From: an uncultured virus (IMG/VR IMGVR_UViG_2851731845_000003)
Lineage: Duplodnaviria > Heunggongvirae > Uroviricota > Caudoviricetes
Length of the DNA stretch: 20,000 bases
Virus record (IMG/VR): IMGVR_UViG_2851731845_000003
Reading direction: 5' to 3' (one strand)
The position numbers were made by a program, and so were the translations under genes. This document shows, one piece after another, positions 3,627 through 20,000 of the stretch. The notes below the pieces were generated by a model, which was not told the DNA's origin, did no database searches, and saw only the letters and a program-made list of their open reading frames with translations. The first letter of the stretch is position 1. The number at the start of each line of letters is the position of its first letter.

Positions 3627-3644
3627 GTTGAGAGGCAGAAATAG

Positions 3645-4306: not shown

Positions 4307-4587
4307 AATTTCCCCTCCTTTCTCAATATATTCTGTGTGCGCATAACGCCCTCTGCGTGATATAGCCGCGCCGTGTCGCCATCAATTAAACGAGTGCGCC
4401 GATCACATTCGTCATGACATGCACTACATCCCCATGCGGCCTGTTCATCAGAGGGTTTAATTCCGGTACCGCAGGTTCCTGCCAGTCGGTAATGAGTGAG
4501 CACCACGGTTTCAGGGTTGCCATTGCATACACCCGGAATACGGATCTGGCACTCGCGGCCCCTTGCCTCTTTGCGTAAATTAGCCAT
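4303..4587 (-). CDS. DUF1364/YbcO-like Zn-binding protein
   Basis: LRKEARGRECQIRIPGVCN...HYRL...CSACHD. Confidence 0.88.
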   Translation of the reverse strand: MANLRKEARGRECQIRIPGVCNGNPETVVLTHYRLAGTCGTGIKPSDEQAAWGCSACHDECDRRTRLIDGDTARLYHAEGVMRTQNILRKEGKL

Positions 4588-4595
4588 GATTGCCC

Positions 4596-5189: not shown

Positions 5190-5257
5190 TTCCGCCCCCG
5201 GATATATGGCACAGCAGCACGATATTTAGGTTATCGGGTGTTCAATCCGACACTTAT

Positions 5258-5266
5258 ATAATAACA
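5258..5266 (-). promoter_or_regulatory. Putative extended -10 promoter for DUF1367-DUF1364-Q
   Basis: TGTTATTAT on the minus strand, about 70 nt upstream of ATG 5189. Confidence 0.45.
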
Positions 5267-5294
5267 GAATCAATCGAATTATTTTCAATAAGTT

Positions 5295-5714
5295 TTAACT
5301 GACATCAATACCAGTAAGATCTTTAATTTTCTTCTTAGCAAACCCTTCCGCAAGAGATTTAGTCACTGACATTAATGTTGATAATCCCTCATCTTTAAAG
5401 CCAGTCTTGATTGTCTGCCAAACTTCTTTCTGTCTTAAGTCAGCAATGAAATCATGGCCCCTAGCTGTTAGCCGAAGAGGAAGTAATACCCAGTCATATC
5501 CTTCATCATCAGAATTAGAATAAACGATACCAAAGCCTTGTCCACCATCAATACGGCAGATTAACCCTTGGTCGTCGAGTAATCTCATATGAAAAACGAA
5601 ATCTTCATCACACTTAAAACCTTTTAACTCTAACTCTTCAATATTAGTTTCAGGCTTTTCCGATGACTCAAAGGCATCAAGTAAATTACGCAAATACTCG
5701 TGATTAATTTTCAT
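5295..5714 (-). CDS. DUF2513-like winged-helix protein, AT-rich accessory gene
   Basis: Start ATG 5714 with AGGAG SD; LRLTARGHDFIADLR..VW motif. Confidence 0.75.
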   Translation of the reverse strand: MKINHEYLRNLLDAFESSEKPETNIEELELKGFKCDEDFVFHMRLLDDQGLICRIDGGQGFGIVYSNSDDEGYDWVLLPLRLTARGHDFIADLRQKEVWQTIKTGFKDEGLSTLMSVTKSLAEGFAKKKIKDLTGIDVS

Positions 5715-5742
5715 TAAATTGCTCCTGTGACATGTCATATCA

Positions 5743-6096
5743 CTATATATTTAATTTAGTCTCATGCCAGCCAAGAGTTTGCCAGCATTCACTTTCACCG
5801 ATAAATGCGCAACCAAGACTATCACCCGGTAGAGCATCACCACACTTACCACACCTGCGCCCCGCTTGCTGTTTGAGCAGCGCCTGCAGCTCGGCGTTAT
5901 CTTTTCGGATCAGCATAGTGATGTATTCGTCCATGTCGTACGGTTCACGCTGTGGGCGGCGTAGGGCACAGTTCTGCTGTAACATTTCTTTCTCTTGCTG
6001 GTCTATCGTCGCTATTAATTTATAGCTGCCACTATCACGCTCTTTCTGACGCTGTAGGCGTTTACGGGCCGCAGCCCGCTCTTTGGTATCAGTCAT
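5743..6096 (-). CDS. Hypothetical protein with C-terminal Cys cluster
   Basis: MTDTKERAAARKRLQRQ...CGKC..C..C; start overlaps the end of the adenine MTase. Confidence 0.75.
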   Translation of the reverse strand: MTDTKERAAARKRLQRQKERDSGSYKLIATIDQQEKEMLQQNCALRRPQREPYDMDEYITMLIRKDNAELQALLKQQAGRRCGKCGDALPGDSLGCAFIGESECWQTLGWHETKLNI

Positions 6097-6928
6097 GCGG
6101 ATGCTCCCGTTTATCAATGTTAGGGCTGAACCATAGGCATTCTATTTTGGTGACCGTGCCGCCCATACCAGCGCTGGCCTGTGCTGATTTTGTTTCTTTG
6201 CACCACCCGGCCAGCATGTCGTTATACAGTTCGCTGTCATAACCGGAAATGATCGACATACCTTTCAATTTTCTGACCGGCTCGAGTAATTCAATATGGT
6301 CTTGCTCGGTCATTTCATGGCGATATGAATAACCAGTTGGTTTCCAACGTTGGCGCGTTTCCGGCAAATATGGCGCATCAATGTAATTCAAAGTGCTGTC
6401 AGTATCATGATCCAGTAACACCTGAACGGCTGGGCGGTTCTCTATCAATACGCCAAGTAAACGCGAACCAATGGCGGCTAAATTATCAGGATAAGACGCC
6501 CATAACTGCTGGGCTGTCGAATATTCTCGTTTGGTATCAGTCCTAAACCCTGATTTATTGGCTGTGGCCGATGCTGAACTAAATCCCATTGTGGCCTTAA
6601 TTACCGTCCTGCGGGCCTGTTCCAATTCATCATCAATAGGCTCATAGGCAAAGTTAAACTCTTCACGGCTATATGGTGTCAGCACACATAAATCACGTAA
6701 ACGTATGTTCATTACTGGATCTTGCAGCACTCGGAATAGGTTCACAATTTCGCCATCAAGATCATTATAAACCTCAGCGTGGGAGCGGGCCTTTCTCAGT
6801 AGAACTGATGCCGCCCCCCCGAACGGCTCAACATAGCAACGGTGAGCAGGGAAAAAACTGGTTATCCATTTCGCTAATCGGAATTTTCCGCCGTGATATC
6901 TGATGACCGGATGTTTTATCTCTGTCAT
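6089..6928 (-). CDS. DNA adenine methyltransferase (D12/Dam class)
   Basis: YHGGK, YVEPFGGAASV, YND and DAPY motifs; ATG 6928 overlaps the C5-MTase stop (ATGA). Confidence 0.92.
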   Translation of the reverse strand: MTEIKHPVIRYHGGKFRLAKWITSFFPAHRCYVEPFGGAASVLLRKARSHAEVYNDLDGEIVNLFRVLQDPVMNIRLRDLCVLTPYSREEFNFAYEPIDDELEQARRTVIKATMGFSSASATANKSGFRTDTKREYSTAQQLWASYPDNLAAIGSRLLGVLIENRPAVQVLLDHDTDSTLNYIDAPYLPETRQRWKPTGYSYRHEMTEQDHIELLEPVRKLKGMSIISGYDSELYNDMLAGWCKETKSAQASAGMGGTVTKIECLWFSPNIDKREHPHD

Positions 6929-9120
6929 GCCGCCACCCTCCAGATACACAGCTCTGGCATATTCGCCCTTACCAGTGCCTCGGCAAAGGGAGGCGGTACT
7001 GCATTACCACACCTTGCCACCTGCTCAGATTTAGGCCAGATTGTGCCGTCAATATCCCGGTCAATAATGTAATCTGGCGGGAACCCGCTGGCGTTGTACA
7101 GCTCGCGGGCAATCAACATGCGCATGCATATATCAACGATGATGTATTCGCCCACAGATAGATATTGTGGTCGTGGCGCGGGGAATAAATGCCAGTCGTC
7201 CGGTAAATCGCTGAAATGATCCACCAGTCGTGCGCAGTTCCATGCGTTGTAGCGCTGCTTGTCGGTCAGTGGTTCGGCATCAAGATTGCTTTCTACCAAG
7301 CCAAAACGTTCTTTGGTTGTCACAGCATGTATCGGCTCTGATAAATCCACCGCGCCGCCAGTGCCGTAATACTTGGTCAGAAATGCGTTTACCAGTCCGA
7401 CATGATTACCGCCCGCGGTTAAAGTCGGTACCGGTTCGGTGATGGGTTTACCATCGCGACATGTACCACGCAGTTGTACCAGGTGAGATGTACAAAGCGC
7501 ATGGTGATCAACCGTGGTGATGGTGTGTAATGGCTCGTTAATATCGATGCCTGCACCGGTATAATTGCCGCCATAATGTTTTACCAGATGAGCGGCCACC
7601 ATTCCCATTGCATGACCATTACCACCGGGGCGAATCGATGTACCGGCCGTGATAGTCGATAATGGCTCATCACATTGTTGGCCTATAGCGCCGGTCCTAA
7701 ATTTGGTTATATGCGGTGCCAGTATTGCACTGGCTAACTGGCTTTTACCGCCCCCACCCGCCGTAACGGTACCCAGTGGAGTATTGATATCATTTGCCGT
7801 GCTGTTGCCGAACTGACGCACAACCACCGGCGCAGCGATAGCAAAACCATGTGTTCTAGTGATTGTTTGTAACGGGTCACGCAATGATTGCCCACGGAAA
7901 CAATCATATTTGGTTTTAGTGCTGGTGTGGTTGCACTTCACTGCATACGGCTCCAGCAACAAATGCTCAGCCTTGCTGGTGATAGTGGTTAGCGGCTGAT
8001 CTAGCGGATACTGCAGACGGTCGCCACCGAAACCGGTTTGGCCCAACCTCACAATAAATGGATCAGGGTTATCGATAACAAAGCGTTGCAGCCCTTTGAC
8101 GATGCGCCGCAAGGTATTATCAGCCAAATCCTTTTTGCGACCGAAAATAGAGCGTGTTGGCTGGCTCCAGTCGATACACTCGGCCGCCGTGCGCCAAGGT
8201 TGCAACATGCCAGAAAGCACATCTGCAGAGTTTGGTGCGCCGTGGCTTGGCTCTGGCCATACAACCGACTCGCCGTCACAACGCCCAACCACAAACAACC
8301 GCTTTCTGATAGTGGGTGTACCGTAATCACAGGCTTTTAGCTCCCGGTGATCCACGTTATACCCCAACCCCGAAACCAGTTTCACCGCCTCAGGACTATT
8401 GATATCTATCTTCAAGAATTCACATACTTCTGCTAGTGCCGGGTGATTGCCATCAATACCGGTACCTAGCATGCCAATAAACGCCTTGAACGTTTCACCT
8501 TTACGGGCTGGATCAGGTCGGTGATTACCCTCACTATCCGTTAACAATGGCCCCCAGCCGCGAAACTCTTCGACATTTTCCAGCATCAGAAAACGTGGGC
8601 GAACTGCCAGCGCCCAGCGTAATACCACCCAGGCTAAACCACGAATTTCTTTCTTAACTGGCGTGCCACCCTTAGCTTTGGAGAAATGGCGGCAATCAGG
8701 ACTGAACCAGCCAAGCAATACCGGCAGACCGCCGGTAGATATCAGCGGGTCGACACTGAAAATATCCTCAGGATAATGCAACGTTCGCGGGTGATTAATG
8801 GCATGCATCGCCATGGCTACCGGATTATGGTTCATCGCGATGTGTGGTTCATAGCCTAATGCTTGCTTGATTCCCTCGCAGCTCCCACCGCCACCAGCGA
8901 ACCCAACGACAACCAGACCATCCTGCAAATCAGGTCGTGCAACTGTAATTTCTTTGCGCCGCGCCCATGCATGAGCCGCCTTTTGAATGTTGCGCGGATC
9001 TTCCCGCGTCAAAAACATTTCGTTCATCTTGGCCAGTAGCTGCTGTTGCTCTGACTCACTCATTGGGTGAACAGGAATGACTGACGAGGCGCATTGCTGA
9101 ACTTCAGTAGGCCAGATCAT
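6925..9120 (-). CDS. DNA cytosine-5 methyltransferase with an expanded variable region
   Basis: FAGGGG (I), SPDC (IV), ENV (VI), RKRLF (VIII) and GNAV (X) motifs. Confidence 0.93.
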   Translation of the reverse strand: MIWPTEVQQCASSVIPVHPMSESEQQQLLAKMNEMFLTREDPRNIQKAAHAWARRKEITVARPDLQDGLVVVGFAGGGGSCEGIKQALGYEPHIAMNHNPVAMAMHAINHPRTLHYPEDIFSVDPLISTGGLPVLLGWFSPDCRHFSKAKGGTPVKKEIRGLAWVVLRWALAVRPRFLMLENVEEFRGWGPLLTDSEGNHRPDPARKGETFKAFIGMLGTGIDGNHPALAEVCEFLKIDINSPEAVKLVSGLGYNVDHRELKACDYGTPTIRKRLFVVGRCDGESVVWPEPSHGAPNSADVLSGMLQPWRTAAECIDWSQPTRSIFGRKKDLADNTLRRIVKGLQRFVIDNPDPFIVRLGQTGFGGDRLQYPLDQPLTTITSKAEHLLLEPYAVKCNHTSTKTKYDCFRGQSLRDPLQTITRTHGFAIAAPVVVRQFGNSTANDINTPLGTVTAGGGGKSQLASAILAPHITKFRTGAIGQQCDEPLSTITAGTSIRPGGNGHAMGMVAAHLVKHYGGNYTGAGIDINEPLHTITTVDHHALCTSHLVQLRGTCRDGKPITEPVPTLTAGGNHVGLVNAFLTKYYGTGGAVDLSEPIHAVTTKERFGLVESNLDAEPLTDKQRYNAWNCARLVDHFSDLPDDWHLFPAPRPQYLSVGEYIIVDICMRMLIARELYNASGFPPDYIIDRDIDGTIWPKSEQVARCGNAVPPPFAEALVRANMPELCIWRVAA

Positions 9121-9623
9121 TGCGCCCCCTCACGTAGTCTTGCTGCGAAATCAAGAATATTGGAAATCTCGCCTGTATCTGCCATTACACCAACGTCAAA
9201 AGCTTGTACGTGACGGTGCTGCGCAAATTTTTCAACACCCCCCGCCTCCACATCATTAAGAGCCAGAATGGTTGCAGGGACACTAATTACTTCGTATAGC
9301 GCCTCAAATGCATCTTCTTCATAGTCGCCACATGAAGAGATGCCATCTACCGTATTCAGATGCCCCCTGTTGTAACCGGCGTTATATACATGGACGCAGG
9401 CTTGTTGGAGTGCTGCGTTCTCGGCAACAATCACATTATATTTCCCCTGCCACTCCAAACACTCCCGCTCGTAGTGCTTTGCTGTGCGCCGGTTCTTATT
9501 AGCTGATGCCACCAACTCCGCTATACGGTCAGCGATGCCGTTTAACACCTCACTTTCACGTGGTTCCACTCTTTCCGCTGCTGAACGAATTGCAGCAATC
9601 ATGCCATCGGTTGATATATTCAT
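9117..9623 (-). CDS. Hypothetical coiled-coil protein (Ead/Ea22-like)
   Basis: AENAALQ coiled-coil and FAARLREG C-terminal patterns. Confidence 0.65.
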   Translation of the reverse strand: MNISTDGMIAAIRSAAERVEPRESEVLNGIADRIAELVASANKNRRTAKHYERECLEWQGKYNVIVAENAALQQACVHVYNAGYNRGHLNTVDGISSCGDYEEDAFEALYEVISVPATILALNDVEAGGVEKFAQHRHVQAFDVGVMADTGEISNILDFAARLREGAQ

Positions 9624-9871
9624 TTGGTCTCGCCTCTGTGGTCTCTGCGGTCACGCCAGTAATTTAAGCGCTCTTTAAAAAACTCTCGGTAATGCACCGG
9701 TACCCGTTCAATCGCTTCAAGTACATGAGCGCGGTTGGTCCTGCGCTCGTACAGGTTTTTGATTAAGCCGCTGGCTCTCAAATCAAGATTTAGCTTTTCT
9801 TGGTATTCCTGAGGCCAGAGGCAAATGTTGTACGGGAGTCCGGGCGGGAGATAATCCGATTGCCCGGTCAT
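9620..9871 (-). CDS. Hypothetical protein
   Basis: 83-aa ORF with GGGGAG SD; stop overlaps the next start. Confidence 0.7.
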   Translation of the reverse strand: MTGQSDYLPPGLPYNICLWPQEYQEKLNLDLRASGLIKNLYERRTNRAHVLEAIERVPVHYREFFKERLNYWRDRRDHRGETK

Positions 9872-9875
9872 GGTA

Positions 9876-10256
9876 TTAACTCCCCATGCCTACCGTGCTC
9901 ATCAGTTGATTTATCCGAGATACTCGCAAGCAGTACGCCAGCTCCTTGTCATCAAATGGCATTCTGGCGGGCTTGGTTCGGGGTTCGCTTTTGTTGCGTT
10001 TTACTTGCGTGTCAGAGAATCGGAAAAAATCCTCTGAGATACTGTTGAGGGTGTATTGAGTCTTTCGACCATTGCGGCGGGTAATGTCTGCGTGGGGTGA
10101 TCGAACCATACCCTGTACTCGGTAGCGCAAAACGCTAATCGGCATTTCAGCATTAGGAAATTTTAAAGTAATAGCCTCGATAATCTGGCTGTAGTTCATG
10201 CTTTGGCCCAGCATAACCGCTGCCAATTCACGGGTAGTTAGTTCACGTTTTTTCAT
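9876..10256 (-). CDS. Hypothetical protein, possibly winged-helix
   Basis: 126-aa ORF after dnaB, preceded by AGAGGCAAGACC. Confidence 0.75.
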   Translation of the reverse strand: MKKRELTTRELAAVMLGQSMNYSQIIEAITLKFPNAEMPISVLRYRVQGMVRSPHADITRRNGRKTQYTLNSISEDFFRFSDTQVKRNKSEPRTKPARMPFDDKELAYCLRVSRINQLMSTVGMGS

Positions 10257-10300
10257 GGTCTTGCCTCTTTTTTGGTTACTTAAACGCTGGTCAGGCGCGG

Positions 10301-11674
10301 TTAAAATTTTGGTGTTGAATAGTGTTTTTCTTTGGCCGGTGGCCTTGATGCCTCTTTTGCCATTCGGCTGGCTTCTTTTGCCACCAGTTGATCCACCGGT
10401 AGAAAGTGGCCGTTTTTAAATTCCTGATAAACGGTACCAGGCTCGCCAAATCGGTTTTTGGTTACTATGGCCTCAGCAAATCTTGCTGCCGGACTATCTG
10501 CGTTATAAACCGCTTCTCGATACAGCATGATGATGCTGTCGGCGTCCTGCTCGATTGAACCTGAGTCCCTGAGGTCGGAACTGATTGGCCTGCGGCTACC
10601 TGGTGGCCGTTCATCCACTTTTCGCGACAACTGGCTTAGTGCAAAAATCGGGGTGTTTATCCGACCGGCCAGCGTTTTTAATCCGCGTGAAATTATTCCG
10701 ATCGACAGGTCATTACGCTCCGCCTTTGGTTTCGTAATCAGGCCAAGGTAATCAACCATCACCATTCTCAGTTTCGGGTACCGGCGCTTGTGCGTTTCTG
10801 CGATAGCCCGTATCTGATCGATGGTTAGCTCACTGGCATCAACGATCCAAATATCACGACCATTCAATGCCTGTAGCGCGGAGTTAATACGCGCCCAGTC
10901 CTCATCACATAACGTTTTAGGGTCGCGTAATTTAGACACTGGCAAGTTACCAGCACCGGCAACGGAACGCTCAACCATCTGTAGGGAGGCCATTTCCATA
11001 CTGAATATCAGCGCACCACCGCCGTTCTGTGTAGCACCCTCAACAATCTTTAATGCAAACTCAGTCTTACCCATCCCCGGACGCCCAGCGATGACAACCA
11101 AGTCCTGAGGGTTAAAACCGCCCGTTATTGCATCCAGCTCGACAATGCCGCTTTGCAGGTTCATCGACTCAATCTCACCATTCATGCGCTTATCGAGCAT
11201 ATCCATGTAGTTGGGTAACAAATCGTTCAGATGTACGGGGATGATGCCGCCGCTGTCTGCCGTCATATCGATCAGTTGTGTTACCGCACCCTGTATTACC
11301 TGATCGCGCTGTTCCTGATTGTTAGCCCCTCGGATGCCGTCAGCAGCGGTCTGGAATAATGCGGTCATGGTTCGGCTATACCAGGTCTTACGGGCATGTG
11401 CGGCATATCCTTTCAGATTCGCTACGTTTCCCGGCATACGGACGATTTCAGACAGAGTGGCCAGACTACTGCCGCCCAATGCCTCACTGACAAACAGGAC
11501 ATCGATCAACCCTTTAGTCAGTGCCTGCTTTTTAATTTCCGCATACGCAGAACGGTATATTCTTATGCTGAATGCTTCCTCTGGCAGTGTGGCAATCACC
11601 TCCAGTGCATCGGGGGTAGAACCGCCATAAAGCAGACCAGATAAAATTGCTGCTTCCAATTCTTGAGGCTTCAT
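10301..11674 (-). CDS. dnaB: Replicative DNA helicase, DnaB family
   Basis: GRPGMGKT Walker A, FSMEM, VDYLGL, LSQLSR, DLRDSGSIEQDAD, KNRFG. Confidence 0.97.
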   Translation of the reverse strand: MKPQELEAAILSGLLYGGSTPDALEVIATLPEEAFSIRIYRSAYAEIKKQALTKGLIDVLFVSEALGGSSLATLSEIVRMPGNVANLKGYAAHARKTWYSRTMTALFQTAADGIRGANNQEQRDQVIQGAVTQLIDMTADSGGIIPVHLNDLLPNYMDMLDKRMNGEIESMNLQSGIVELDAITGGFNPQDLVVIAGRPGMGKTEFALKIVEGATQNGGGALIFSMEMASLQMVERSVAGAGNLPVSKLRDPKTLCDEDWARINSALQALNGRDIWIVDASELTIDQIRAIAETHKRRYPKLRMVMVDYLGLITKPKAERNDLSIGIISRGLKTLAGRINTPIFALSQLSRKVDERPPGSRRPISSDLRDSGSIEQDADSIIMLYREAVYNADSPAARFAEAIVTKNRFGEPGTVYQEFKNGHFLPVDQLVAKEASRMAKEASRPPAKEKHYSTPKF

Positions 11675-12717
11675 AGCGCACCATCACGGGTTTTTCTTAA
11701 GACTTCCGGTTTCATCAGATAATCAAAGTTTGCCCGCCAGCCTGCCCCATCATCACCACCGAAATAAAACACGGTTGCCTGTCCGCGAAAGGCTTCGAAG
11801 TAGCTCTGGAACGCTTCAAGGTCTTTGGTTTTGAGGTATTGGAGTAATTCGCGGATGGCGTGTTTACGGTCCTGATCGATTTCAGCCGGTGGCAAAACAT
11901 CGCTGAATACAAGGTTATACGCAGTAATGACCTCATCGCAATCAATCCGCCCAGCAGACTCAGACCATGCACGGGCATCAGCCAGATAACCATCGAACCG
12001 GTTTACACGGCAGATATTCGCAGGTTTGGCATACTTGCCGTTGCGGGGTTTCCAGGTATTTACTACCCAGAGGGCCACTAATTTCAAATCAGCCAGCGCG
12101 TAGGCTTTGCGTGATTTCGTTGCCGTCAGCAAGGTTTCGAATGGGCTAGAATCTTCACACCGGGTATGGGTGAGTTCGTTGTAATACGCCAAAGCCCTTT
12201 CAGCGTCAGCGAGAGTATTTTCGGTTTCCCCTTGAGGGGTAAGGGGTGTTTTATTCTTTGTAGTATTCTTTGTAGTATTCTCTTGTAACATTTGGTCATT
12301 CTGACTAGATGTGATCTTGTCATTCTGACCTGCTCCCAATTGGTCATTTTGACCAGATGCATTTGTAGAATTAAGCAACTCCAATTGGTCATAATTTATC
12401 GAATACCACTTAGTGCGGTTATAGGGATCACTGAGCAACACTTTATGTAACTGACCAACTGAAATTAGTTTCATTTCCAGCAGGTTTGCCAACGTGCGTT
12501 TAATCGTACTATCAGACCAAAAGCCTAATTCATCGGCCCATTCAGCCGCCGATTTATAAAACCACTTCCGGCCTTCATGACGGTGATCCGACCGACATAG
12601 CCAATAATGAATTTGCTGAACGAGTATGGCTTCATTGAGGCCAATCTCTTTTGCAAGCGAGGGTAGTACTTGCAGCGGAGGTTCATTAATTAACAGCTTG
12701 GCGCTATTCATCTTCAA
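11671..12717 (-). CDS. Phage replication initiator (O-like)
   Basis: N-terminal wHTH (LLINEPPL..GLNEAIL.QQIHYW), internal iterons, C-terminal WRANFDYLMKP; upstream of DnaB. Confidence 0.88.
   Translation of the reverse strand: MKMNSAKLLINEPPLQVLPSLAKEIGLNEAILVQQIHYWLCRSDHRHEGRKWFYKSAAEWADELGFWSDSTIKRTLANLLEMKLISVGQLHKVLLSDPYNRTKWYSINYDQLELLNSTNASGQNDQLGAGQNDKITSSQNDQMLQENTTKNTTKNKTPLTPQGETENTLADAERALAYYNELTHTRCEDSSPFETLLTATKSRKAYALADLKLVALWVVNTWKPRNGKYAKPANICRVNRFDGYLADARAWSESAGRIDCDEVITAYNLVFSDVLPPAEIDQDRKHAIRELLQYLKTKDLEAFQSYFEAFRGQATVFYFGGDDGAGWRANFDYLMKPEVLRKTRDGAL
12252..12391. repeat. Replication origin: iterons plus AT-rich 12-mers
   Basis: GTCATT(C/T)TGAC at 12295, 12319 and 12343 (24-bp period), half copy at 12388; TATTCTTTGTAG x2 plus one variant at 12252-12287. 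Confidence 0.85.
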
Positions 12718-12938
12718 ACCCCCAGCGCTTCCGCTATTTGCCGACAGGCAGACTGATAATCGTCAGCTGATAGGTTCATCAGGCGCAGGTCTGCTTTCTT
12801 CTGCTCGTACTGTTCCCACACGCTATATGCGGCAACCTGACGCCCTGCAAAAATTGGCTCTATGTCAGCTATGCTTGCCGGTTGCCCGTTCAGCCGGAAC
12901 CCGTTGCAGTAGGTAATTTTATCGATAGATGTAAGCAT
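12714..12938 (-). CDS. Hypothetical protein
   Basis: 74-aa ORF preceded by AGAGGCAAGACCA; stop overlaps the initiator start. Confidence 0.75.
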   Translation of the reverse strand: MLTSIDKITYCNGFRLNGQPASIADIEPIFAGRQVAAYSVWEQYEQKKADLRLMNLSADDYQSACRQIAEALGV

Positions 12939-12954
12939 TGGTCTTGCCTCTGTT

Positions 12955-13419
12955 TTATACGGTGGTCAGCCGGTGGTGTTGTGGTCTGATTGCGTGAAGT
13001 GCCGCAACAGCGCCCGATATTCTTTGTGACATGTCACAGCCATCTAATAGAACAGCGCTAATTGCTGCGGCAAACTCTCTGCTGGCAATCGAAACCAAAT
13101 AATTAACGGTCTCGCCATTTACTCTGGCCCGCCGTTCTGCTGGGAGCGCCGCTTTAAGTACCGGTGATAATTCCAAGACCTTTCGCATTGATGCTTTTGA
13201 ATCCCCGCGCAACCAACGGAATAACTGCTGCCGGTTGTTGTTGATAGACTTCCAATCAGCGTTGCCCTCCTCGTCTTCAATGGGAGTGAGGCGTACTGAA
13301 TCCGTACTGATATTAAGCAAGAAAAACATTCTGCTGATCTCGATAGCTACATGCTCCTGCCCCCGTTCTGCTGCCCACGCCTGTACTTCAGCTTTAAGGG
13401 CGTTAACTTGTTGTTCCAC
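12955..13419 (-). CDS. CII-equivalent, YdaT family
   Basis: GTG start, AGGAG SD, follows cro; WAAERGQEHVAIEI..NRQQLFRWL pattern; TTGATT-N6-AATCA sites nearby. Confidence 0.8.
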   Translation of the reverse strand: MEQQVNALKAEVQAWAAERGQEHVAIEISRMFFLLNISTDSVRLTPIEDEEGNADWKSINNNRQQLFRWLRGDSKASMRKVLELSPVLKAALPAERRARVNGETVNYLVSIASREFAAAISAVLLDGCDMSQRISGAVAALHAIRPQHHRLTTV

Positions 13420-13442
13420 GTTGCGTCTCCTGTCGCAGGAAA

Positions 13443-13486
13443 TTGATTATTGATAATCAGATTTTAAAAGTGGGTTTGGTTAAGCT
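13443..13486 (+). promoter_or_regulatory. pRE-like CII/YdaT-activated promoter
   Basis: TTGATT-ATTGAT-AATCA, 21 nt, then TAAGCT, pointing toward cI. Confidence 0.7.
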
Positions 13487-13665
13487 GCGCTCTGATACAT
13501 CGATGGGTCATATTTCAATTCGCCATGAGTAATGCGTTCAATCTTCATTGCTTGTTTCTCAGGGATAATTTCCCCCCAGCGACAAACTGCCGGGTGTTTT
13601 ATTCCTAAGGCCATCGCGGTATTTACTACACCGCCAAAAAACTTGACTACCTCTTTCTTGTTCAT
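13480..13665 (-). CDS. cro: Cro-like repressor
   Basis: 61 aa from ATG 13665, GAGGAG SD, HTH (FGGVVNTAMALGIKHPAVCRW), divergent from cI. Confidence 0.9.
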   Translation of the reverse strand: MNKKEVVKFFGGVVNTAMALGIKHPAVCRWGEIIPEKQAMKIERITHGELKYDPSMYQSAA

Positions 13666-13691
13666 AGGGACTCCTCTTTGATCATAAAGCG

Positions 13692-13758
13692 AAGGTAACA
13701 AAAGGTACATAACAATGCAAACACTTTTCACCACACTATCGCGTAACATTGGTTACAT
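13692..13758. promoter_or_regulatory. OR region: pR and operators
   Basis: pR on minus strand TTGCAT(13720-15)-17-TACCTT(13697-92); operators AGGTAACAAAAGGTACAT 13693-13710 and GCGTAACATTGGTTACAT 13741-13758. Confidence 0.8.
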
Positions 13759-14419
13759 GAAAACTGAAATGAATGACCGCATCCGTATTCGCAGACTGCA
13801 ACTGGATCTCACTCAAGTCCAATTAGCCAAGGCTATTGGAGTGAGTCGAGTATCAGTTACGAAATGGGAGTCAGGGATAACCAAACCAGATGGAGAGAAT
13901 CTTCACCGACTGGCGCAAGTACTTTCATGTACGCCAGAATGGTTACTCTATGGTACCGGGGATTTACGCCAGGTTGATGATACAAAAATCAAGCCTCTCA
14001 CCGCCGTGCCTAATGCCATACCTGTTATTTCATCAGTTCAAGCAGGCACTTGGACTGATACATATTCAGCGGCCCGAATTTCTGATGTTCTTAGATGGTG
14101 TACTACCACAGTGAAGGTTTCTGAAAACGCTTTTGCCTTAGATGTTCGTGGTGAGTCGATGACAAACCCCAATGGGTCACCTTCTATACCTGAAGGTTCT
14201 ACAGTCATCGTCGAGCCTAACTATGGTTCTATTGAAGATTTATACGGCAAGATAGTGGTGGCCATTATTGATGGTAGTTCCGAGGCCACAATTAAAAAGC
14301 TAGTCGTCGATGGACCTAATAAATATCTCATGCCATTAAACCCTAACTTTAGACCGATCGAAATCAACGGCAATTGCCGTATTCTCGGTAGAGTAGTACA
14401 GGTCACCCAAGACCTGTAA
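13757..14419 (+). CDS. cI: CI repressor (HTH + S24 peptidase)
   Basis: HTH LTQVQLAKAIGVSRVSVTKWE; A-G cleavage site VQAG; catalytic GESM and TIKKL; likely start ATG 13757. Confidence 0.95.
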   Translation: MKTEMNDRIRIRRLQLDLTQVQLAKAIGVSRVSVTKWESGITKPDGENLHRLAQVLSCTPEWLLYGTGDLRQVDDTKIKPLTAVPNAIPVISSVQAGTWTDTYSAARISDVLRWCTTTVKVSENAFALDVRGESMTNPNGSPSIPEGSTVIVEPNYGSIEDLYGKIVVAIIDGSSEATIKKLVVDGPNKYLMPLNPNFRPIEINGNCRILGRVVQVTQDL

Positions 14420-14424
14420 TCAAT

Positions 14425-14449
14425 AGCCCATCACCTCGGTGGGTTTTCT
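14425..14449 (+). terminator. Terminator after cI
   Basis: GCCCATC-ACCTC-GGTGGGT then TTTCTT. Confidence 0.65.
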
Positions 14450-14460
14450 TACGCCCTTAA

Positions 14461-14514
14461 ATGTAACTTATGGAACATCTATCTATTGACATGGTAGGTA
14501 ACTATAGGTACATT
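14461..14514 (+). promoter_or_regulatory. pL promoter with two OL operators
   Basis: TTGACA(14486-91)-17-TACATT(14509-14); operators ATGTAACTTATGGAACAT 14461-78 and AGGTAACTATAGGTACAT 14496-14513. Confidence 0.88.
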
Positions 14515-14600
14515 CACGATATCAACACGGCACAGCAGCCGATAAGCAGTTTAGGTTTAGTACGTTCTGGCAGCCGGGAAGACGGCAAAAGAGGAAGGTT

Positions 14601-14753
14601 ATGAAAGCAACTAAAAAGAAAACGAGTAAATTCCAGATCCAATATCGCTACTGTGGAATGTGGGCTAACGGAAATACTTACTCAACGCGCAAAGAAGCTG
14701 ATGATTACGCACGTAATACTGGCCGTGATTATCAAGTAGTCAAAGTACGGTAA
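14601..14753 (+). CDS. Small basic hypothetical protein (50 aa), first pL gene
   Basis: Below the ORF-track cutoff; SD GAGGAAGG; MKATKKKTSKFQIQYRYCGMWANGNTYSTRKEADDYARNTGRDYQVVKVR. Confidence 0.7.
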   Translation: MKATKKKTSKFQIQYRYCGMWANGNTYSTRKEADDYARNTGRDYQVVKVR

Positions 14754-14924
14754 CAACAGAATTTGGGTTGTTGCATTGGAGGAGAACCCCGCGCCAAGGC
14801 TCGGCATGATTACCACAGTGCAGCAGCCCAAACCAATAACGTAGCCACGACGGGAAAGTGTGGTGAGGCAAGACCAAAGATCTGACCCGCTGGCCCGGCG
14901 TAATGGGCACCAAATTACAGACGT

Positions 14925-15042
14925 AAAAAAACCCACCTAAGTGGGCTTCTTTACCCCGGGTCACCGACCAAAGTTAACCGGGAAGCTAACGGGGACCAAC
15001 CCGTTAACAGAGGCAAGACCAACGGCTTACGCCATCAATCTT
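14925..15042 (-). ncRNA. Putative ~118-nt sRNA with UUGGUC loops, complementary to the repeated RBS motif
   Basis: Extended -10 TGATATACT (15057-49); 5' stem with GUAA tetraloop; two UUGGUC-loop hairpins; terminator GCCCAC-TTAG-GTGGG plus U7. Confidence 0.65.
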
Positions 15043-15066
15043 AAAAACAGTATATCAGGAGTTGCT

Positions 15067-15402
15067 ATGACAGCACTACAGATAACCACCCAGCTATACA
15101 TCCATGTAAATCCGCATTCAACAATGAAAGCTAACCGCTTTATTGTGAGTACCTGTGACATGTCACAATCAACACCAGCATATGCGTTACTTGAAACCCG
15201 CGAAATCACTATCGCTTTCGACGAACCCGATCCATTTGAAATCATCAGTAAGCAGGTTGATTCACTACGCGCTCAAAAAGAGCGGCTGGCGGCTGAATCA
15301 TATCGGCATCAGTTGCTAATTGATGATCAGATTCAGGCATTGCTATGCATCGAGCACAGTACTCCATCGAACGTATCTGATGATACCGAAATTCCTTTTT
15401 AA
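15067..15402 (+). CDS. Hypothetical protein (111 aa)
   Basis: CAGGAG SD before ATG 15067; ends in an acidic DDTEIPF tail. Confidence 0.75.
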   Translation: MTALQITTQLYIHVNPHSTMKANRFIVSTCDMSQSTPAYALLETREITIAFDEPDPFEIISKQVDSLRAQKERLAAESYRHQLLIDDQIQALLCIEHSTPSNVSDDTEIPF

Positions 15403-15457
15403 TTAGTCATACATCAAAGACCAAGATCCGTTTAAAAACCAAAGAGGCAAGACCAAC

Positions 15458-17656
15458 ATGACTGTATTTATTTGTTTATTCGAGCCGAAAAAAGCGGCTC
15501 TCAAAAATGGGGCTATACCACTGGTTATAGCTCTGGAAGCCATAAATAAGAAAATGGCATCCGCACTGGCCATCGGGAAATTATGGGAAGCCTACCCCGC
15601 TGCCGGTGATAACTTTGCTGATCCGAAAATCTGTGAGGATACTGTCGGGCAACCGCGCCCTGCTGTGGGTGATTTCGATGAGCAGTTCGCACAGGATAAT
15701 ACCTTTGATGGCAAAGTATGGACGCCAAATACCGTGGCATCGCCAGAGGATGAGGATGATAACGACGGCGACGAACAAGGCGATGATTCTGGCTTGGTGA
15801 ACTACGCCAAGTTGGGCATTGATGTCAAAGTTGGCAAGATCCTAATGTATGGCTTGCGTGACATTGGTACACACGAACTATCACTAGTGTATGACCTGAT
15901 TAACGACGACGAGGGTGATGCTGGGCTGCGTTCAATTATAACGGCGTTGGCTGGTATACCGGCTGTAGGCGCAATGTATCAGGAGTCGGTCAAAGAACTG
16001 GTCGACGCCATTAATGTGAAGTTTCCTAAGACCCCTCAATTTCCTGAAGTACAGAAGTTTGCCCAAAAATGGGTTGATGAACCCAATAAGCGGGACGAGT
16101 TAACTGGAACGAAGAAAGTTACCCGTATAAACACACCCACGCCTGATGCGCCAATTAAACGCGGCTTTGACCACACCTATAAAACGCTTGATCTCGAAGT
16201 CGCCCTCGCCTTGGTACCCACTGTTTTGAACTGTTGGGAAATCTACTCAGCAGAAATGAGGCAGGCAAAAGAGCTGATGGATAGCAATGATGATGCCTGG
16301 CGCAAGTGGTCTACCGAATTGCGCGTTCGCAGCGATGCGTTGTCTATTCCGCGTGAAACCATCTTTGAGATGATCCGCGCGGGTAAAGAAAAACCTATCT
16401 TCCTAACCGATGCCGCAGCCAGGAAAGAATTTATCTCACAATATTTAGCCGTTAAAGGCCCACAGCCCGCAGTTAAAAATCTAGGCGACGGCAAGTTCTC
16501 TATTGATGGTCTGGTCGGTGGTGAACAGCCAGCGGCAAACAGTGAAACAAAACTGGCATTGGTTGCCAATTCTGGGCCAGAAACTGAAACAAAACCGCCA
16601 ATTGTTGCAACAGAACAGGAAAACCCTTCACAGGAACCTATCTCCGATAATGCCGCTCAACAGGCTAAAGAGACATTGGATAAGTTGGGTTACAGCGTTT
16701 ATGCCTCAACTGATGAGAAGCCAGCAGAGATAATTGAGACGGCACAGCAAAATGACGTTGCTACCGTAGCGGTTACGGCTGATGAGTTCCAACACCGCGC
16801 CGGGTTGATTGAGCAAGAGATTGCGCAGAAATCCCCTGCGGAGCAAGAAAACCTGCATATCTGGAAATCAGTACAACGCACAGATCCACGCTTTACCAAA
16901 CCTGTAGAGGGTGCGGGATATGTAGCTACAAGCATTAACGCTGAATATATGTTTATGCGAGCCACCGAAGTATTCGGCCCAGTTGGTGAGGGTTGGGGCT
17001 ATACCATTCTTGAAGAAAAGATGCTTTCAGGCGCGCCAATGTCCGAGGCTATTTACGACGATAACAAGAAATATGTTGGTAACCGGCTTATTCGTGATGC
17101 CGATGGCACATTGATATGCGAACAAAATCACTCGATCAAAATTCAATTCTGGTACTCAGTCGAGGGTGATGTGCGTGGCGAGATCGAAAGTTACGGAGCC
17201 ACCCCTTACATGTATAAAACCAATAAAGGAATTAAGGCAGATAGCGAGGTAATCAAAAAGAGCCTCACTGACGCCATTAAGAAAGCATTATCTATGCTGG
17301 GCTTTAGCGCCGACGTATGGCTCGGCATGCACGATAACCCCGAGTATAAAGCAGAAAATGACATTGAGTTTGCTATCAAGAACGCCAGTGAAAAAGCTGG
17401 TGACTCAGTTCGTCTGCGCAAAGAACTGGATGAGAAGTTAACCAAAGTAGGCAATACCATTACGAGCGCCGTCACCACCAACGAAGTGAACAAGGTTTAT
17501 AGCACCATTGCGCGTGAAGTTGATGTACATCGCAAAGATGCCGAAGCCAAAGCCGATCACGAACACGCCAATTACCTCAAAACCCGCCTGCTTGCGTTAC
17601 ACCGCTTAACTGAAAAACGGGTTGCTGAACTTACCGCACAGGAGCCGACATTATGA
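15458..17656 (+). CDS. RecE-like N-terminal region fused to a Rad52/Sak-like annealing domain
   Basis: C-terminus TDPRFTK..INAEYMFMRATEVFGPVGEGWGY..KKSLTDAIKKALSMLGFSADV; N-terminus and LDLEVALAL block resemble prophage exoVIII N-regions. Confidence 0.7.
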   Translation: MTVFICLFEPKKAALKNGAIPLVIALEAINKKMASALAIGKLWEAYPAAGDNFADPKICEDTVGQPRPAVGDFDEQFAQDNTFDGKVWTPNTVASPEDEDDNDGDEQGDDSGLVNYAKLGIDVKVGKILMYGLRDIGTHELSLVYDLINDDEGDAGLRSIITALAGIPAVGAMYQESVKELVDAINVKFPKTPQFPEVQKFAQKWVDEPNKRDELTGTKKVTRINTPTPDAPIKRGFDHTYKTLDLEVALALVPTVLNCWEIYSAEMRQAKELMDSNDDAWRKWSTELRVRSDALSIPRETIFEMIRAGKEKPIFLTDAAARKEFISQYLAVKGPQPAVKNLGDGKFSIDGLVGGEQPAANSETKLALVANSGPETETKPPIVATEQENPSQEPISDNAAQQAKETLDKLGYSVYASTDEKPAEIIETAQQNDVATVAVTADEFQHRAGLIEQEIAQKSPAEQENLHIWKSVQRTDPRFTKPVEGAGYVATSINAEYMFMRATEVFGPVGEGWGYTILEEKMLSGAPMSEAIYDDNKKYVGNRLIRDADGTLICEQNHSIKIQFWYSVEGDVRGEIESYGATPYMYKTNKGIKADSEVIKKSLTDAIKKALSMLGFSADVWLGMHDNPEYKAENDIEFAIKNASEKAGDSVRLRKELDEKLTKVGNTITSAVTTNEVNKVYSTIAREVDVHRKDAEAKADHEHANYLKTRLLALHRLTEKRVAELTAQEPTL

Positions 17657-18153
17657 GCAATACAGCAATCGCATTAGCCGCAGACCTTTTCAAACTGCAA
17701 CAGTTGGTTGAGTCCTCAGAGGAACTCACGCCAGAAATGATCGCCGATACGCTTGAGGGGTTAGAGGGTGCCCTGGGGGATAAGCTGGATGCAACCTACG
17801 TCTTTGTTCGCAATCTTGAAGGGCAAGCAAAGACCTGTGATGAAGAAGCGAAGCGCCTAGCTGATCGTAAGCGATCGTTCGAGAACCGGGCAAAGTCGAT
17901 CAAGCAGTATGTGCTTAGCTGTTTACTGGCTGCTGATATGAACACATTGAAAACGCCGTATAACACATTCACCGCTCGTAAAGGTGTGGCTAATGTGGTC
18001 ATCGATAACGAGGATTTGTTGCCAAGTGAACTGGTAACGGTACAGACCATCGTAGCGCCGGATAAAAAGGCCATCAAAGAAGCCATAGAAAATGGCGTTG
18101 ATGTTAAAGGTGCGCATATCGAAATAGGTAGTCGTAGCCTGCAAGTTCGATAA
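17653..18153 (+). CDS. Siphovirus Gp157 family protein
   Basis: DTLEGL..K..coiled coil..PDKKAIKEAIENG.DVKGAH..SLQVR. Confidence 0.88.
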   Translation: MSNTAIALAADLFKLQQLVESSEELTPEMIADTLEGLEGALGDKLDATYVFVRNLEGQAKTCDEEAKRLADRKRSFENRAKSIKQYVLSCLLAADMNTLKTPYNTFTARKGVANVVIDNEDLLPSELVTVQTIVAPDKKAIKEAIENGVDVKGAHIEIGSRSLQVR

Positions 18154-18197
18154 TTTATCCAGCCCCGGACCAACGGGGCATTATTGAGGCAAGACCA

Positions 18198-18371
18198 ATG
18201 CTAAGAAAGACACAAAAGCGGCACGAACTGGCCTATATAACACTCCCAGACGGAAGAACGGGAACCATCCACACCGATCGCCGCTGTGATGTTCACTATG
18301 ATTTTCCAACTGATGTGCGCATTAGTAGCACACCACCGCAGCCAACCGCTGAAAAGGAGGCCAGGCAATGA
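18198..18371 (+). CDS. 57-aa protein, possible divergent CsrA/RsmA fold
   Basis: Below the ORF-track cutoff; MLRKTQKRHELAYITLPDGRTGTIHTDRRCDVHYDFPTDVRISSTPPQPTAEKEARQ; SD GAGG. Confidence 0.65.
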   Translation: MLRKTQKRHELAYITLPDGRTGTIHTDRRCDVHYDFPTDVRISSTPPQPTAEKEARQ

Positions 18372-18523
18372 TCCGTTCTCAACTGGCCGTGTTCTTTATC
18401 ACAGCAGGAGCAGCCTTAACTCTAATTTATGGGGCTGAGGTCAGCGCTGTAGCCGCGTTTTCATTTGGTACCGGTTTGGCTGTGGGGTGCTGGAGGCGTA
18501 GAAAAGTACCAACCAAAAGTTGA
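18368..18523 (+). CDS. 51-aa membrane protein with two hydrophobic segments
   Basis: SD AAGGAGG, ATGA overlap; MIRSQLAVFFITAGAALTLIYGAEVSAVAAFSFGTGLAVGCWRRRKVPTKS. Confidence 0.7.
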   Translation: MIRSQLAVFFITAGAALTLIYGAEVSAVAAFSFGTGLAVGCWRRRKVPTKS

Positions 18524-18563
18524 TTTTGCTTAATCAGAAATAATCAAGCTGCCGCGCTAGCAT
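18520..18563 (+). promoter_or_regulatory. pI-like CII/YdaT-activated promoter
   Basis: TTGATT-TTGCTT-AATCA, 21 nt, then TAGCAT; same geometry as the 13443 site. Confidence 0.7.
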
Positions 18564-18593
18564 GATGGTAAACCAACACCAGGGAAAACCATC

Positions 18594-18800
18594 ATGCAGC
18601 AATGGCAACCAGGCAAGCGTCTATTGACCGACTTCGATATTAAGATCGGTAAATTATCAGCCAGCGTACGAAAGCAGCAACTCACCGACCAAGATATACA
18701 GCGGGCCTGTTCTGCGACCGACAGAGCAATAACCCAAATGATACAGGGGCAAGACCATGAAAAACGACCACGACATAATCACCAAAGAGGAGATGATTGA
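18594..18800 (+). CDS. Hypothetical protein
   Basis: 68-aa ORF with AGGGA SD, overlaps the xis start. Confidence 0.6.
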   Translation: MQQWQPGKRLLTDFDIKIGKLSASVRKQQLTDQDIQRACSATDRAITQMIQGQDHEKRPRHNHQRGDD

Positions 18801-18990
18801 GCTGACCGGGTATCATATCCCTTCAAAGCAATGTGAAGCACTTAAAAATGCTGGGATATTTTTTATAATCCGTAGAGATGGCCGTCCGCAAACTACATGG
18901 GGCCATTTTCAAGATCCCCTATCTCTTCGTCATACCCCCAAAGCAGCGACTGAAATATCTGTTGAGCCTAACTTCGGAGCATTAGATTAA
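18757..18990 (+). CDS. xis: Excisionase-like protein (DUF4224)
   Basis: ITKEEMIELTGY...QCEALKNAGIFF..RRDGRP; directly before the integrase. Confidence 0.82.
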   Translation: MKNDHDIITKEEMIELTGYHIPSKQCEALKNAGIFFIIRRDGRPQTTWGHFQDPLSLRHTPKAATEISVEPNFGALD

Positions 18991-20000
18991 TGGGGAGAAA
19001 ACGCAGTAACCCACAAGACAACTGGATGCCTCCACGAACATGCAGGGGGCGTTCTGCATTTGAATTTAAGCCTAAGCTCGGGGGAACGATAAGGCTCTGC
19101 GGATTCGATGCCAGTCCGGCCCAAGTATGGGCAGCGTATGAGGCGTTAATAAATGATAAACAGAATGAAAATGTCTTTAATTGGCTTGTTAGTCGATTCT
19201 TTCTATCTGCCGATTTTATAGAGCTAGCTGTTGAGACACAGAAAGATTATCGGAAATATGCGGTAAAAGTATTATCTGTTTTCGGCGAGGTCCATCCAGA
19301 TGCAATAAAACCTGAGCATATTCGCAAGTATATGGATAAGCGTGGCGTAAAAAGTCGCACTCAGGCTAATAGGGAAAAAGCCTTTACATCCCGTGTCTTT
19401 CGATGGGCCTATGAGAGAGGGATGGTGAAAATGAACCCATGCAAAGGCGTGAAGCAATTTAAAGAAACCAGCCGTACACGTTATATAACCAATAAAGAAT
19501 ACGATGCGCTTTATCAAGTTTCCCCGCCAGTAGTTCAGGTCGCAATGGAACTGGCATATTTATGCTGTGCACGACAAGCCGATATTTTAGGCATGAAGAA
19601 GAACCAACTAATTGATGATGGGATCTTAATACAACAAAGTAAAACGGGTATTTCTCAAATCAAAGCATGGGGACCGCGTTTAACCGCAGTTATAAAGCTC
19701 GCCAGTCAACTACCGTTAAACAGAGGAATGAGCAGCATCTTTGTTATCCACCAACAATCCGGTGCCAGATATACAAGAGATGGTTTTAATAGCCGATGGC
19801 TGAAAGCCAAAGCGGAGGCAAAAGAGAAGTATCCAGAATTAGAGTTTAATTTCACTTTTCACGATTTGAAGGCAAAAGGAATCTCTGATTTAAGCGGATC
19901 GCTTTACGAAAAACAGGCGATATCAGGACACAAGAATGCAGCTCAAACAGCACGATATGATCGTAAAATTGCGATAGTGCCAGCGGTAGGAGACCAGTAA
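18990..20000 (+). CDS. int: Tyrosine recombinase (phage integrase)
   Basis: CCARQADIL (R), FHDLKAK, SGHKN, TARYDR (Y); stop at 19998-20000. Confidence 0.95.
   Translation: MGRKRSNPQDNWMPPRTCRGRSAFEFKPKLGGTIRLCGFDASPAQVWAAYEALINDKQNENVFNWLVSRFFLSADFIELAVETQKDYRKYAVKVLSVFGEVHPDAIKPEHIRKYMDKRGVKSRTQANREKAFTSRVFRWAYERGMVKMNPCKGVKQFKETSRTRYITNKEYDALYQVSPPVVQVAMELAYLCCARQADILGMKKNQLIDDGILIQQSKTGISQIKAWGPRLTAVIKLASQLPLNRGMSSIFVIHQQSGARYTRDGFNSRWLKAKAEAKEKYPELEFNFTFHDLKAKGISDLSGSLYEKQAISGHKNAAQTARYDRKIAIVPAVGDQ

Follow-up and report, generated by a model that had tools for sequence, protein, structure and literature searches.

The locus

The window analysed here is a stretch of 20,000 nucleotides from an uncultured virus of the Caudoviricetes (IMG/VR record IMGVR_UViG_2851731845_000003). 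It covers the early region of a circular 41,687-bp contig (C2), a 41.7-kb temperate phage of the ZF40/Gifsy type, and wraps the contig origin: positions 1-2618 correspond to C2:39070-41687 and positions 2619-20000 to C2:1-17382. Close to its right end lies P0001, a gene for a 57-residue protein that very probably descends from CsrA. The ribosome-binding site of P0001 carries a 12-nt start-associated sequence (SAS) that recurs at other early genes, and a predicted small RNA (sRNA) of the IsrB family, complementary to this sequence, is encoded on the minus strand further upstream. The features at the start of P0001 are the following.

18162..18179, + strand: GACCAA-loop hairpin whose 6-bp stem is all G+C; it lies behind the Gam-like gene, which stops at 18153, and ahead of the ribosome-binding site
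18186..18197, + strand: SAS GAGGCAAGACCA, consisting of the Shine-Dalgarno sequence GAGG and spacer, directly before the ATG of P0001
18188..18202, + strand: weak predicted 4-bp hairpin GGCA/UGCU (minimum-free-energy fold only)
18198..18371, + strand: P0001, 57 residues, a very probable diverged CsrA-superfamily protein, phrog_2482, syntenic with gp05 of phage ZF40

The initial annotation of this DNA placed a hairpin and a GACCAA motif upstream of P0001, and both are present as described; the fold was computed and the coordinates confirmed. The stem pairs GCCCCG (18162-18167) with CGGGGC (18174-18179) around the loop GACCAA (18168-18173), and the 66-nt hairpin segment folds at -16.7 kcal/mol (z = -3.05), a value equalled by none of 200 shuffles. 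A second GACCAA (18193-18198) overlaps the A of the ATG. The weak GGCA/UGCU hairpin at this position would, in the computed fold, expose AGACCAA in its loop while pairing part of the Shine-Dalgarno sequence and the AUG. The window contains 19 copies of GACCAA where 9.45 +/- 2.8 are expected, and one of 200 shuffles reaches 19. The 13-mer GAGGCAAGACCAA has five exact copies in the 4.94-Mb genome, all of them in the phage contig.

Comparisons among related phages were made on 80 loci kept from viral contigs, and counts of motif, hairpin and sRNA are given per 81 sources. A GACCAA-loop hairpin with a stem of at least 4 bp precedes the P0001 homologue in only 15 of these. The distant 'MLRH'-type phages (46 of 81 sources) have the palindrome GTGACATGTCAC in place of the hairpin. 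This 12-bp palindrome is found inside the phrog_2479 gene (approximately 15150-15165) in the window and its relatives, and directly before the start motif of the P0001 homologue in the distant type (L072-L119); a DNA-binding protein may recognise it.

That P0001 is a real gene follows from its full-length match to phrog_2482 (E 4.3e-12), from the syntenic homologue in ZF40, and from an excess of variation at third codon positions. Variable columns at the three codon positions number 12/10/39 in 16 unique Yersinia-type gene heads and 11/6/35 in 29 unique 'MLRH'-type heads, and none of 49 unique heads of the P0001 family contains a stop codon. There are 12 close homologues at 70-93% identity, of which those with a named source come from Yersinia; homologues in public records are annotated "hypothetical protein". 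A relative of P0001 is encoded in 118 of 121 candidate stretches of viral contigs. Judged from the lengths of the 80 kept loci, it lies mostly 1.2-2.7 kb (and at most about 7.4 kb) from the end of the provirus contig, and it is upstream of excisionase and integrase genes in the loci whose open reading frames (ORFs) were inspected (L057, L068, L078 and ZF40). None of 200 other species genomes sampled from the same order has a match to P0001, which is therefore a sporadic prophage gene. Phage records gave no match by DNA search or by tblastn with P0001 and P0021, and ZF40 was reached solely through a search with the sRNA region. The distant-type locus has no match in E. coli genomes.

Probable descent of P0001 from CsrA

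The resemblance to CsrA reported in the initial annotation stands as a matter of descent through intermediates; as a direct likeness it is not recovered by comparison with Pfam, NCBIfam, the PDB, BLASTP or hhalign. The profile of the P0001 family (alignment A3, 22 members) gave 17 matches among 1.84 billion proteins; five long repeat proteins were set aside, and three short matches are CsrA-like. The intermediates P0026 and P0029, found with this profile at E 8.1e-5 and 8.1e-4, both score above the Pfam CsrA cut-off (36.0 and 43.8 bits versus 27). P0001 and P0026 are identical at 20 of 45 ungapped positions (E 6e-7). In hhalign comparisons, the family profile matches P0026 with a probability of 97.1% and P0029 with 97.8%, and these two match canonical CsrA (alignment A2, comprising 21 of 30 extracted CsrA sequences) with 93.8% and 96.4%, respectively.

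A further search uncovered a clade of CsrA proteins that share the 'LPDG' insertion behind strand 2; of the ten matches in that search, seven contain PF02599 and two are named CsrA by their source. When this LPDG-type CsrA (alignment A7) is used as a bridge, hhalign links it to the P0001 family at 98.4% (E 5e-15) and to canonical CsrA at 99.0% (E 3.7e-18). The ZF40 protein gp05, which keeps an Arg at position 44, matches A3 at 97.7% and the bridge at 97.3%. The ESM Atlas lists a CsrA cluster at rank 7 (score 0.82), no more than a lead; the cluster at rank 2, named automatically as AbrB/MazE/SpoVT, was set aside, having no Pfam match in its support. These comparisons make it very probable that P0001 descends from CsrA via the LPDG-type clade, with its insertion between strands 2 and 3.

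Several results weigh against this descent. P0001 has no Pfam family at E <= 10 and no NCBIfam family, and its six weak matches among PDB sequences include no CsrA. The host has one canonical csrA, and BLASTP of P0001 against its product gives E 0.27; a six-frame PF02599 search of the genome found this csrA (92.4 bits) and not the P0001 ORF. The comparison of the P0001 family with the 21 canonical CsrA sequences by hhalign is not significant. Its best local matches are the two segments that had been aligned by eye, in the same register (residues 1-11 with 1-11 and 31-42 with 31-42); the two segments alone are not significant, with probabilities of 0.5% and 0.3%. Several of the CsrA intermediates are metagenomic singletons, and the 'LPDGRTG' stretch also matches adhesin repeats.

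The longer string 'ITLPDGRTGT' matches repeat units of very long adhesin-like proteins (P0018, P0022, P0025, P0027 and P0028) as well as Ig-like domains of the Bap/SiiE type (PDB 7dm0 and 2yn3). It is probably a common beta-hairpin motif and no sign of homology. The viral contigs contain no relative of the intermediates P0047 or P0026.

Loss of CsrA features

CsrA binds GGA-containing RNA loops and Shine-Dalgarno regions. Canonical CsrA (A2) has invariant Arg44, Glu45 and Glu46, and in the LPDG-type bridge (A7) the residues equivalent to Arg44 and Glu46 do not vary either. The P0001 family lacks the equivalents of both Arg44 and Glu46. As the initial annotation had noted, the RNA-binding Arg44 equivalent is not conserved: none of the 22 members of A3 has an Arg there, and P0001, with Ser44, reads Ser-Ser-Thr-Pro-Pro in this region. 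According to passages of Sobrero and Valverde (2020; PMC7366521), Arg44 of E. coli CsrA is essential for RNA binding, and the CsrA core consists of five strands followed by a helix.

Two AlphaFold2 monomer models of P0001 (pLDDT, the predicted local distance difference test score, 80.8 and 77.3) have strands at about residues 2-6, 11-15, 21-25, 30-36 and 41-43, no helix, and a Pro-rich tail of low confidence. Foldseek found no match to the two models at E <= 0.001. A VIA structure search with the models gave a best Z of 3.8 and no significant neighbour; RsmN (4kji_A) stands at rank 47, not above noise (Z 2.5, root-mean-square deviation 3.5 over 41 residues), and is the sole CsrA-type chain among the structure matches listed. 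Such monomer searches carry little weight, since it takes an intertwined dimer to form the CsrA fold.

P0001 thus fails three defining features of CsrA, namely the family-profile cut-off, Arg44 and the C-terminal helix. Because the equivalents of Arg44 and Glu46 and the C-terminal helix have been lost, P0001 probably no longer reads GGA RNA as CsrA does.

A start-associated sequence at early genes

The motif had been presented as belonging to P0001 itself. It proves instead to be common to about eight early genes and to be kept in distant relatives. The window contains six exact copies of GAGGCAAGACCA and two with one mismatch, all on the coding strand; six of the eight directly precede ORF starts and the other two are orphans. 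In addition to the copy before P0001, they are:

15444..15455, + strand: SAS before the gene for a 732-residue exonuclease-like protein (start 15458)
18746..18757, + strand: SAS with one mismatch, before the excisionase gene (start 18757)
12939..12950, - strand: SAS before a 74-residue phrog_2465 gene (start 12938)
10256..10267, - strand: SAS sharing its last A with the ATG of a 126-residue ORF (9876-10256)
9625..9636, - strand: SAS with one mismatch, before a 168-residue ORF (start 9623)
14865..14876, + strand: orphan SAS copy with no start codon behind it
15010..15022, assigned to neither strand: on the + strand an orphan SAS copy followed by ACG; on the minus strand the sequence is UUGGUCUUGCCUC (anti-SAS), which adjoins the 5' end of the sRNA or falls within it

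Among 79 distinct related loci, 75 have one to seven exact SAS copies, located before the same gene families. At the start of the P0001 homologue the sequence is exact in 63 of 81 sources, has one mismatch in 1 and two mismatches in 14, and is absent from 3. It is kept in relatives with protein identities of only 45-52%, and positions -12 to -1 carry the majority base in 79-100% of unique variants, making them more conserved than the coding sequence. L068-type phages have the variant GAGGAAAGACC at several gene starts and beside the sRNA hairpins. This parallel change at the starts and the sRNA fits co-evolution, but it fits gene conversion as well. A literature text search for the motif yielded only unrelated primer sequences among the matches listed.

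Where the window has ACG after the orphan copy at 15010, the relatives L049 and L050 have ATG (reading MAYAINLK...). The phrog_2479 gene has an in-frame ATG with its own AGGAG at 15067, and it seems to have lost its motif-linked start. In the distant type, a mini-ORF of four codons (ATG ATA AAT CAC TGA) is located behind the same SAS copy. A second recurring unit, AAGACCAAGATC(T/C), occurs at several intergenic joints, at 15419-15424 and 14872-14882 in the window and upstream of the P0001 hairpin in L041-L052; it may mark gains or losses of gene cassettes at the motif. On the minus strand at 9700-9745 there is another hairpin, GAGCGC...GCGCUC, whose loop includes GACCAA; it is about 100 nt upstream of the motif-bearing 9623 start and inside the preceding ORF.

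A predicted IsrB-family small RNA on the minus strand

The stretch from 14865 to 15022 had been read as a + strand GACCAA array that acts as a sponge. It is better described as the antisense image of a predicted minus-strand sRNA of the IsrB family that ends in a U7 terminator. The parts of this element are as follows.

14926..15012, - strand: predicted IsrB-family sRNA gene (span of the Rfam match; isrB, 34.8 bits)
14987..15006, - strand: sRNA hairpin 1, with a 7-bp stem and the 6-nt loop UUGGUC (GACCAA at 14994 on the + strand); all 9 pairs show covariation
14955..14982, - strand: sRNA hairpin 2, with a large loop containing the invariant CUUUGGUCGG (GACCAA at 14966 on the + strand)
14932..14945, - strand: terminator stem CCCAC/GUGGG, followed by U7 (14925-14931)

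The element lies antisense between the promoter-proximal genes and the exonuclease-like gene, and matches the whole Rfam isrB model (E 7e-5 to 2.8e-4). Three of the eight orthologous loci that were scanned, out of 80, pass the gathering score (L057, 38.4 bits; L041, 38.4 bits; L067, 35.7 bits). The second-best Rfam match of the same stretch is rsmX, at 22.2 bits and E 0.025-0.1, which is not significant against a gathering score of 56.

The 81 sources contain 74 sRNA elements, which reduce to 16 unique variants, all with the same fold of hairpin 1, hairpin 2 and terminator. The stem of either hairpin occurs in three versions. UUGGUC is invariant at three places across the 16 variants, twice in the hairpin loops and once within UUGGUCUUGCCUC, which is the exact complement of the SAS at 15010-15022. 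A covariance model built from 19 of 30 unique variants was used to search 27 of 82 sources and found the element in 23 of the 27; among these are ZF40 (60.9 bits) and L068-L070 (31-35.5 bits), which had not contributed to the model. In the resulting alignment 96.6% of cells are paired, and compensatory changes occur in 17 of 30 pairs, compared with a shuffle mean of 9.8 (none of 500 shuffles reaches 17) and 2-4 in slid controls; the alignment was fitted to the covariance model, and this biases it towards the structure. In most or all sequences, however, several pairs are G.U, and their + strand equivalents would be C.A mismatches. Since such pairs are compatible with the minus strand alone, that is the strand on which the structure has been selected.

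A proposed circuit and its alternatives

The best explanation of these observations, though one held tentatively, is a circuit in which the sRNA acts on the SAS, with P0001 as a CsrA-derived target gene. An IsrB-family sRNA would be made from the minus strand at 14926-15012, perhaps extending to 15022, and the SAS, in the form GAGGCAAGACC(A), would be its pairing site at early genes of both early operons. In the motif-bearing genes GACCAA separates the Shine-Dalgarno sequence from the AUG, and the UUGGUC of the sRNA would pair with the GACCAA of these ribosome-binding sites. A loop-loop contact with the hairpin before P0001 may form as well: the two GACCAA before P0001 are 25 nt apart, and the two sRNA loops about 28 nt apart. 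Such pairing would block ribosome binding and so dampen the translation of early recombination and excision genes, including P0001, and the sRNA, being antisense in cis, would moreover encounter the early transcript. In this scheme P0001 would be among the genes that the circuit regulates, and its protein might bind one of the two RNAs. Because the sRNA carries three invariant UUGGUC sequences, RNA-RNA pairing would explain the motif at least as well as protein binding.

A number of points weigh against this circuit. The isrB score in the window is 0.2 bits below the gathering score of 35, and the match is not listed in a full-window scan at that threshold. Hairpin 1 of the ZF40 sRNA has UUUGUC instead of UUGGUC, and the Rfam isrB consensus likewise has a different first loop. 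Without the 13-nt anti-SAS, the sRNA has only 6-8 nt complementary to the ribosome-binding sites. When 31 start regions were ranked by duplex energy with this short form, the motif genes were not separated from the others; for the long form the ranking is circular. The P0001 homologue is kept in the sources whose start motif has two mismatches and in those that lack it. Finally, efficient translation or use as a recombination joint might by itself account for the conservation of the motif. Two other readings, pairing of GACCAA with 16S rRNA and a hairpin of the lambda N/boxB type, were dropped because the conserved structure is on the other strand and the hairpins come after a terminator.

If the motif has no partner in trans, it would be an efficient ribosome-binding site that doubles as a patch of homology at gene borders for module swapping, and P0001 would have a role unrelated to RNA. 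The orphan copies at 14865 and 15010 do resemble scars of gene loss, the genes between motif copies vary between loci, and the single variant at all sites of the L068-type phages is what gene conversion would produce; the start-associated sequences of Cluster K mycobacteriophages, whose function is given as unknown in the sections of PMC3203893 that describe them, are a known parallel. However, this explanation accounts neither for an invariant UUGGUC in two sRNA loops amid changing stems nor for the GACCAA-loop hairpin before P0001, and it is rather unlikely, if a serious competitor to the sRNA-SAS circuit. It is also conceivable that P0001 binds the minus-strand sRNA, whose GG-containing UUGGUC loops recall the GGA loops of Rsm/Csr sponges, and that the two form a Csr-like pair in which the protein would stabilise or block the IsrB-like RNA or be titrated by it. 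The invariance of the loop sequence over covarying stems, the occurrence of gene and sRNA together in 74 of 81 sources and in ZF40, and the appearance of rsmX as the second-best Rfam match are consistent with such a pair. Yet the rsmX match falls far short of its gathering score, the key RNA-binding residues have been lost and co-occurrence among related phages is not independent, so this pairing is improbable. An equally improbable variant of the preferred circuit would make it private and three-part, with an IsrB-family sRNA, a complementary 12-nt SAS, and a degenerate CsrA paralogue that reads one of the RNA partners instead of GGA. Such a circuit, if true, would amount to a Csr/Rsm-like system with altered specificity, carried by the phage and controlling how far recombination and excision genes are translated.

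A different role for P0001, also raised in the initial annotation, is that of a poison: it would form mixed dimers with host CsrA and so disturb Csr control in the host while the phage develops. It might also do so by occupying a CsrA partner. Common descent, five predicted strands at matching positions and the presence of one canonical host csrA are compatible with this, and loss of Arg44 is what might be expected of a dominant-negative subunit. Against it, identity to host CsrA is too low for BLASTP, and strand 1 is strongly basic where CsrA is hydrophobic; the idea is very doubtful. Least probable of all is the original proposal that P0001 is a Csr protein of altered specificity, which would bind GACCAA in + strand loops and Shine-Dalgarno sites, repress itself and be titrated by the 14865-15022 array. 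Its CsrA descent is in favour, as are the two closely spaced GACCAA at the P0001 ribosome-binding site, one of them in a stable loop, and the presence of a homologue in 7 of 10 further motif-bearing proviruses (4 of 4 among those at least 90% complete), although co-occurrence of protein and motif is weak evidence because the phages are kin. The loss of Arg44 and Glu46, both invariant in A2 and A7, and of the helix speaks against it. As originally written, with a sponge and autoregulation, the model does not hold: the G.U pairs of the array fit only the minus strand, where the strong terminator is also found, the hairpin at the gene's own ribosome-binding site occurs in a minority of sources, and the motif serves about eight genes.

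The phage setting

The remaining features that bear on expression of P0001 are:

13715-14419, + strand: CI-like repressor with an S24 peptidase domain
14486..14514, + strand: promoter-like site TTGACA-17 nt-TACATT, after the CI-like repressor gene (consensus match only)
18368..18523, + strand: 51-residue hydrophobic ORF whose ATG overlaps the P0001 stop (ATGA), with no family match

The minus-strand early genes include a P22-Cro/YdaS-like gene and a YdaT/CII-like gene, and an O-like replication initiator and a DnaB-type helicase are also encoded. On the + strand the order is the 732-residue exonuclease-like gene (phrog_2489), a Gam-like Gp157 gene, P0001, a DUF4224 excisionase gene and the integrase gene. 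The site at 14486..14514 is likely to be the early leftward-type promoter of the P0001 operon, which would run from behind the CI-like repressor gene through the exonuclease-like, Gam-like, excisionase and integrase genes. The first gene after this site is a 50-residue basic ORF at 14601-14753 (+ strand) with a weak match to phrog_15891 (E 0.005); in the relatives L041, L045 and L057 the promoter-proximal sequence before the terminator is unlike that of the window.

The chromosome contig (C1:4898782-4899782) contains a second, 100% identical copy of the integrase end of the window (19000-20000), while the P0001 gene is single copy. The assembly may represent the phage twice, as the excised circle and as part of an integrated prophage. 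Within the O-like replication gene (11671-12717), the minus strand at 12292-12390 has three spaced AATGACCAA(T/A)T units, which lie in a stretch encoding repeated GQND/SQND peptides and supply 3 of the 19 GACCAA of the window; they look like origin iterons within an initiator gene. PADLOC gave no match.

Comparison with known systems

CsrA genes are also carried by phages and plasmids, and the portion of Sobrero and Valverde (2020; PMC7366521) that treats them lists 30 in phages. P0001 resembles CsrA/RsmA (PF02599) proteins in its length (approximately 57-61 residues), in five strands at matching positions, in being phage-borne, and in sharing the N-terminal segment ML..T/S.R/K..E...I and the segment ..P..V.I/V. 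It differs in its four-residue LPDG insertion, its shortened loop between strands 3 and 4, its basic strand 1, a Ser at the Arg44 position, and the lack of Glu46 and of a C-terminal helix. A syntenic counterpart is gp05 of Pectobacterium phage ZF40 (NC_019522), a hypothetical protein of 58 residues encoded between a Gam-like gene and the excisionase and integrase genes. The exact motif stands at the gp05 start, and an IsrB-like element is located upstream of the exonuclease gene; in contrast to P0001, gp05 keeps Arg at position 44, its gene is not preceded by a GACCAA-loop hairpin, and loop 1 of the sRNA reads UUUGUC.

The sRNA itself is comparable to IsrB of Salmonella Gifsy-1 and Gifsy-2 (RF01386; Padalon-Brauch et al. 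2008, PMC2330248). In the passages of that paper on these RNAs, isrB-1 and isrB-2 are antisense beside sbcA in Gifsy-2 and Gifsy-1 and are expressed as starvation-induced RNAs of 88 and 94 nt. The window element is likewise about 87 nt long and antisense beside an sbcA-like exonuclease gene, with a U-run terminator, and its conserved loop CUUUGGUCGGUG matches the family consensus; the UUGGUC loop of hairpin 1 is absent from the Rfam consensus. No target or function of IsrB was found in the portions of the IsrB literature consulted. We infer from the complementary sequences a link between IsrB and the SAS.

The closest analogue of the SAS as such is found in Cluster K mycobacteriophages, whose SAS/ESAS elements are described in the relevant sections of Pope et al. 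(2011; PMC3203893) as sequences of about 13 nt, on one strand, before the start codons of a subset of genes. Both are conserved, asymmetric start sequences tied to gene families, and some copies in each follow an inverted repeat. The sequence, host and phage type are unrelated, making this an analogy only, and in the present case a complementary sRNA is encoded in the same phage.

What appears to be new here is a phage protein, very probably derived from CsrA, that lacks Arg44, and a proposed, previously undescribed link of a start-associated motif to an IsrB sRNA. The phrog_2482/ZF40 gp05 family, now "hypothetical protein", would join the CsrA superfamily as a branch without the RNA-binding arginine, and the P0001 family would serve as a natural experiment on a CsrA scaffold lacking Arg44. 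IsrB, known since 2008, would gain a testable set of targets in the early-gene ribosome-binding sites that share one motif. Enterobacterial temperate phages would similarly have a start-associated sequence like that of Cluster K, together with a candidate partner acting in trans.

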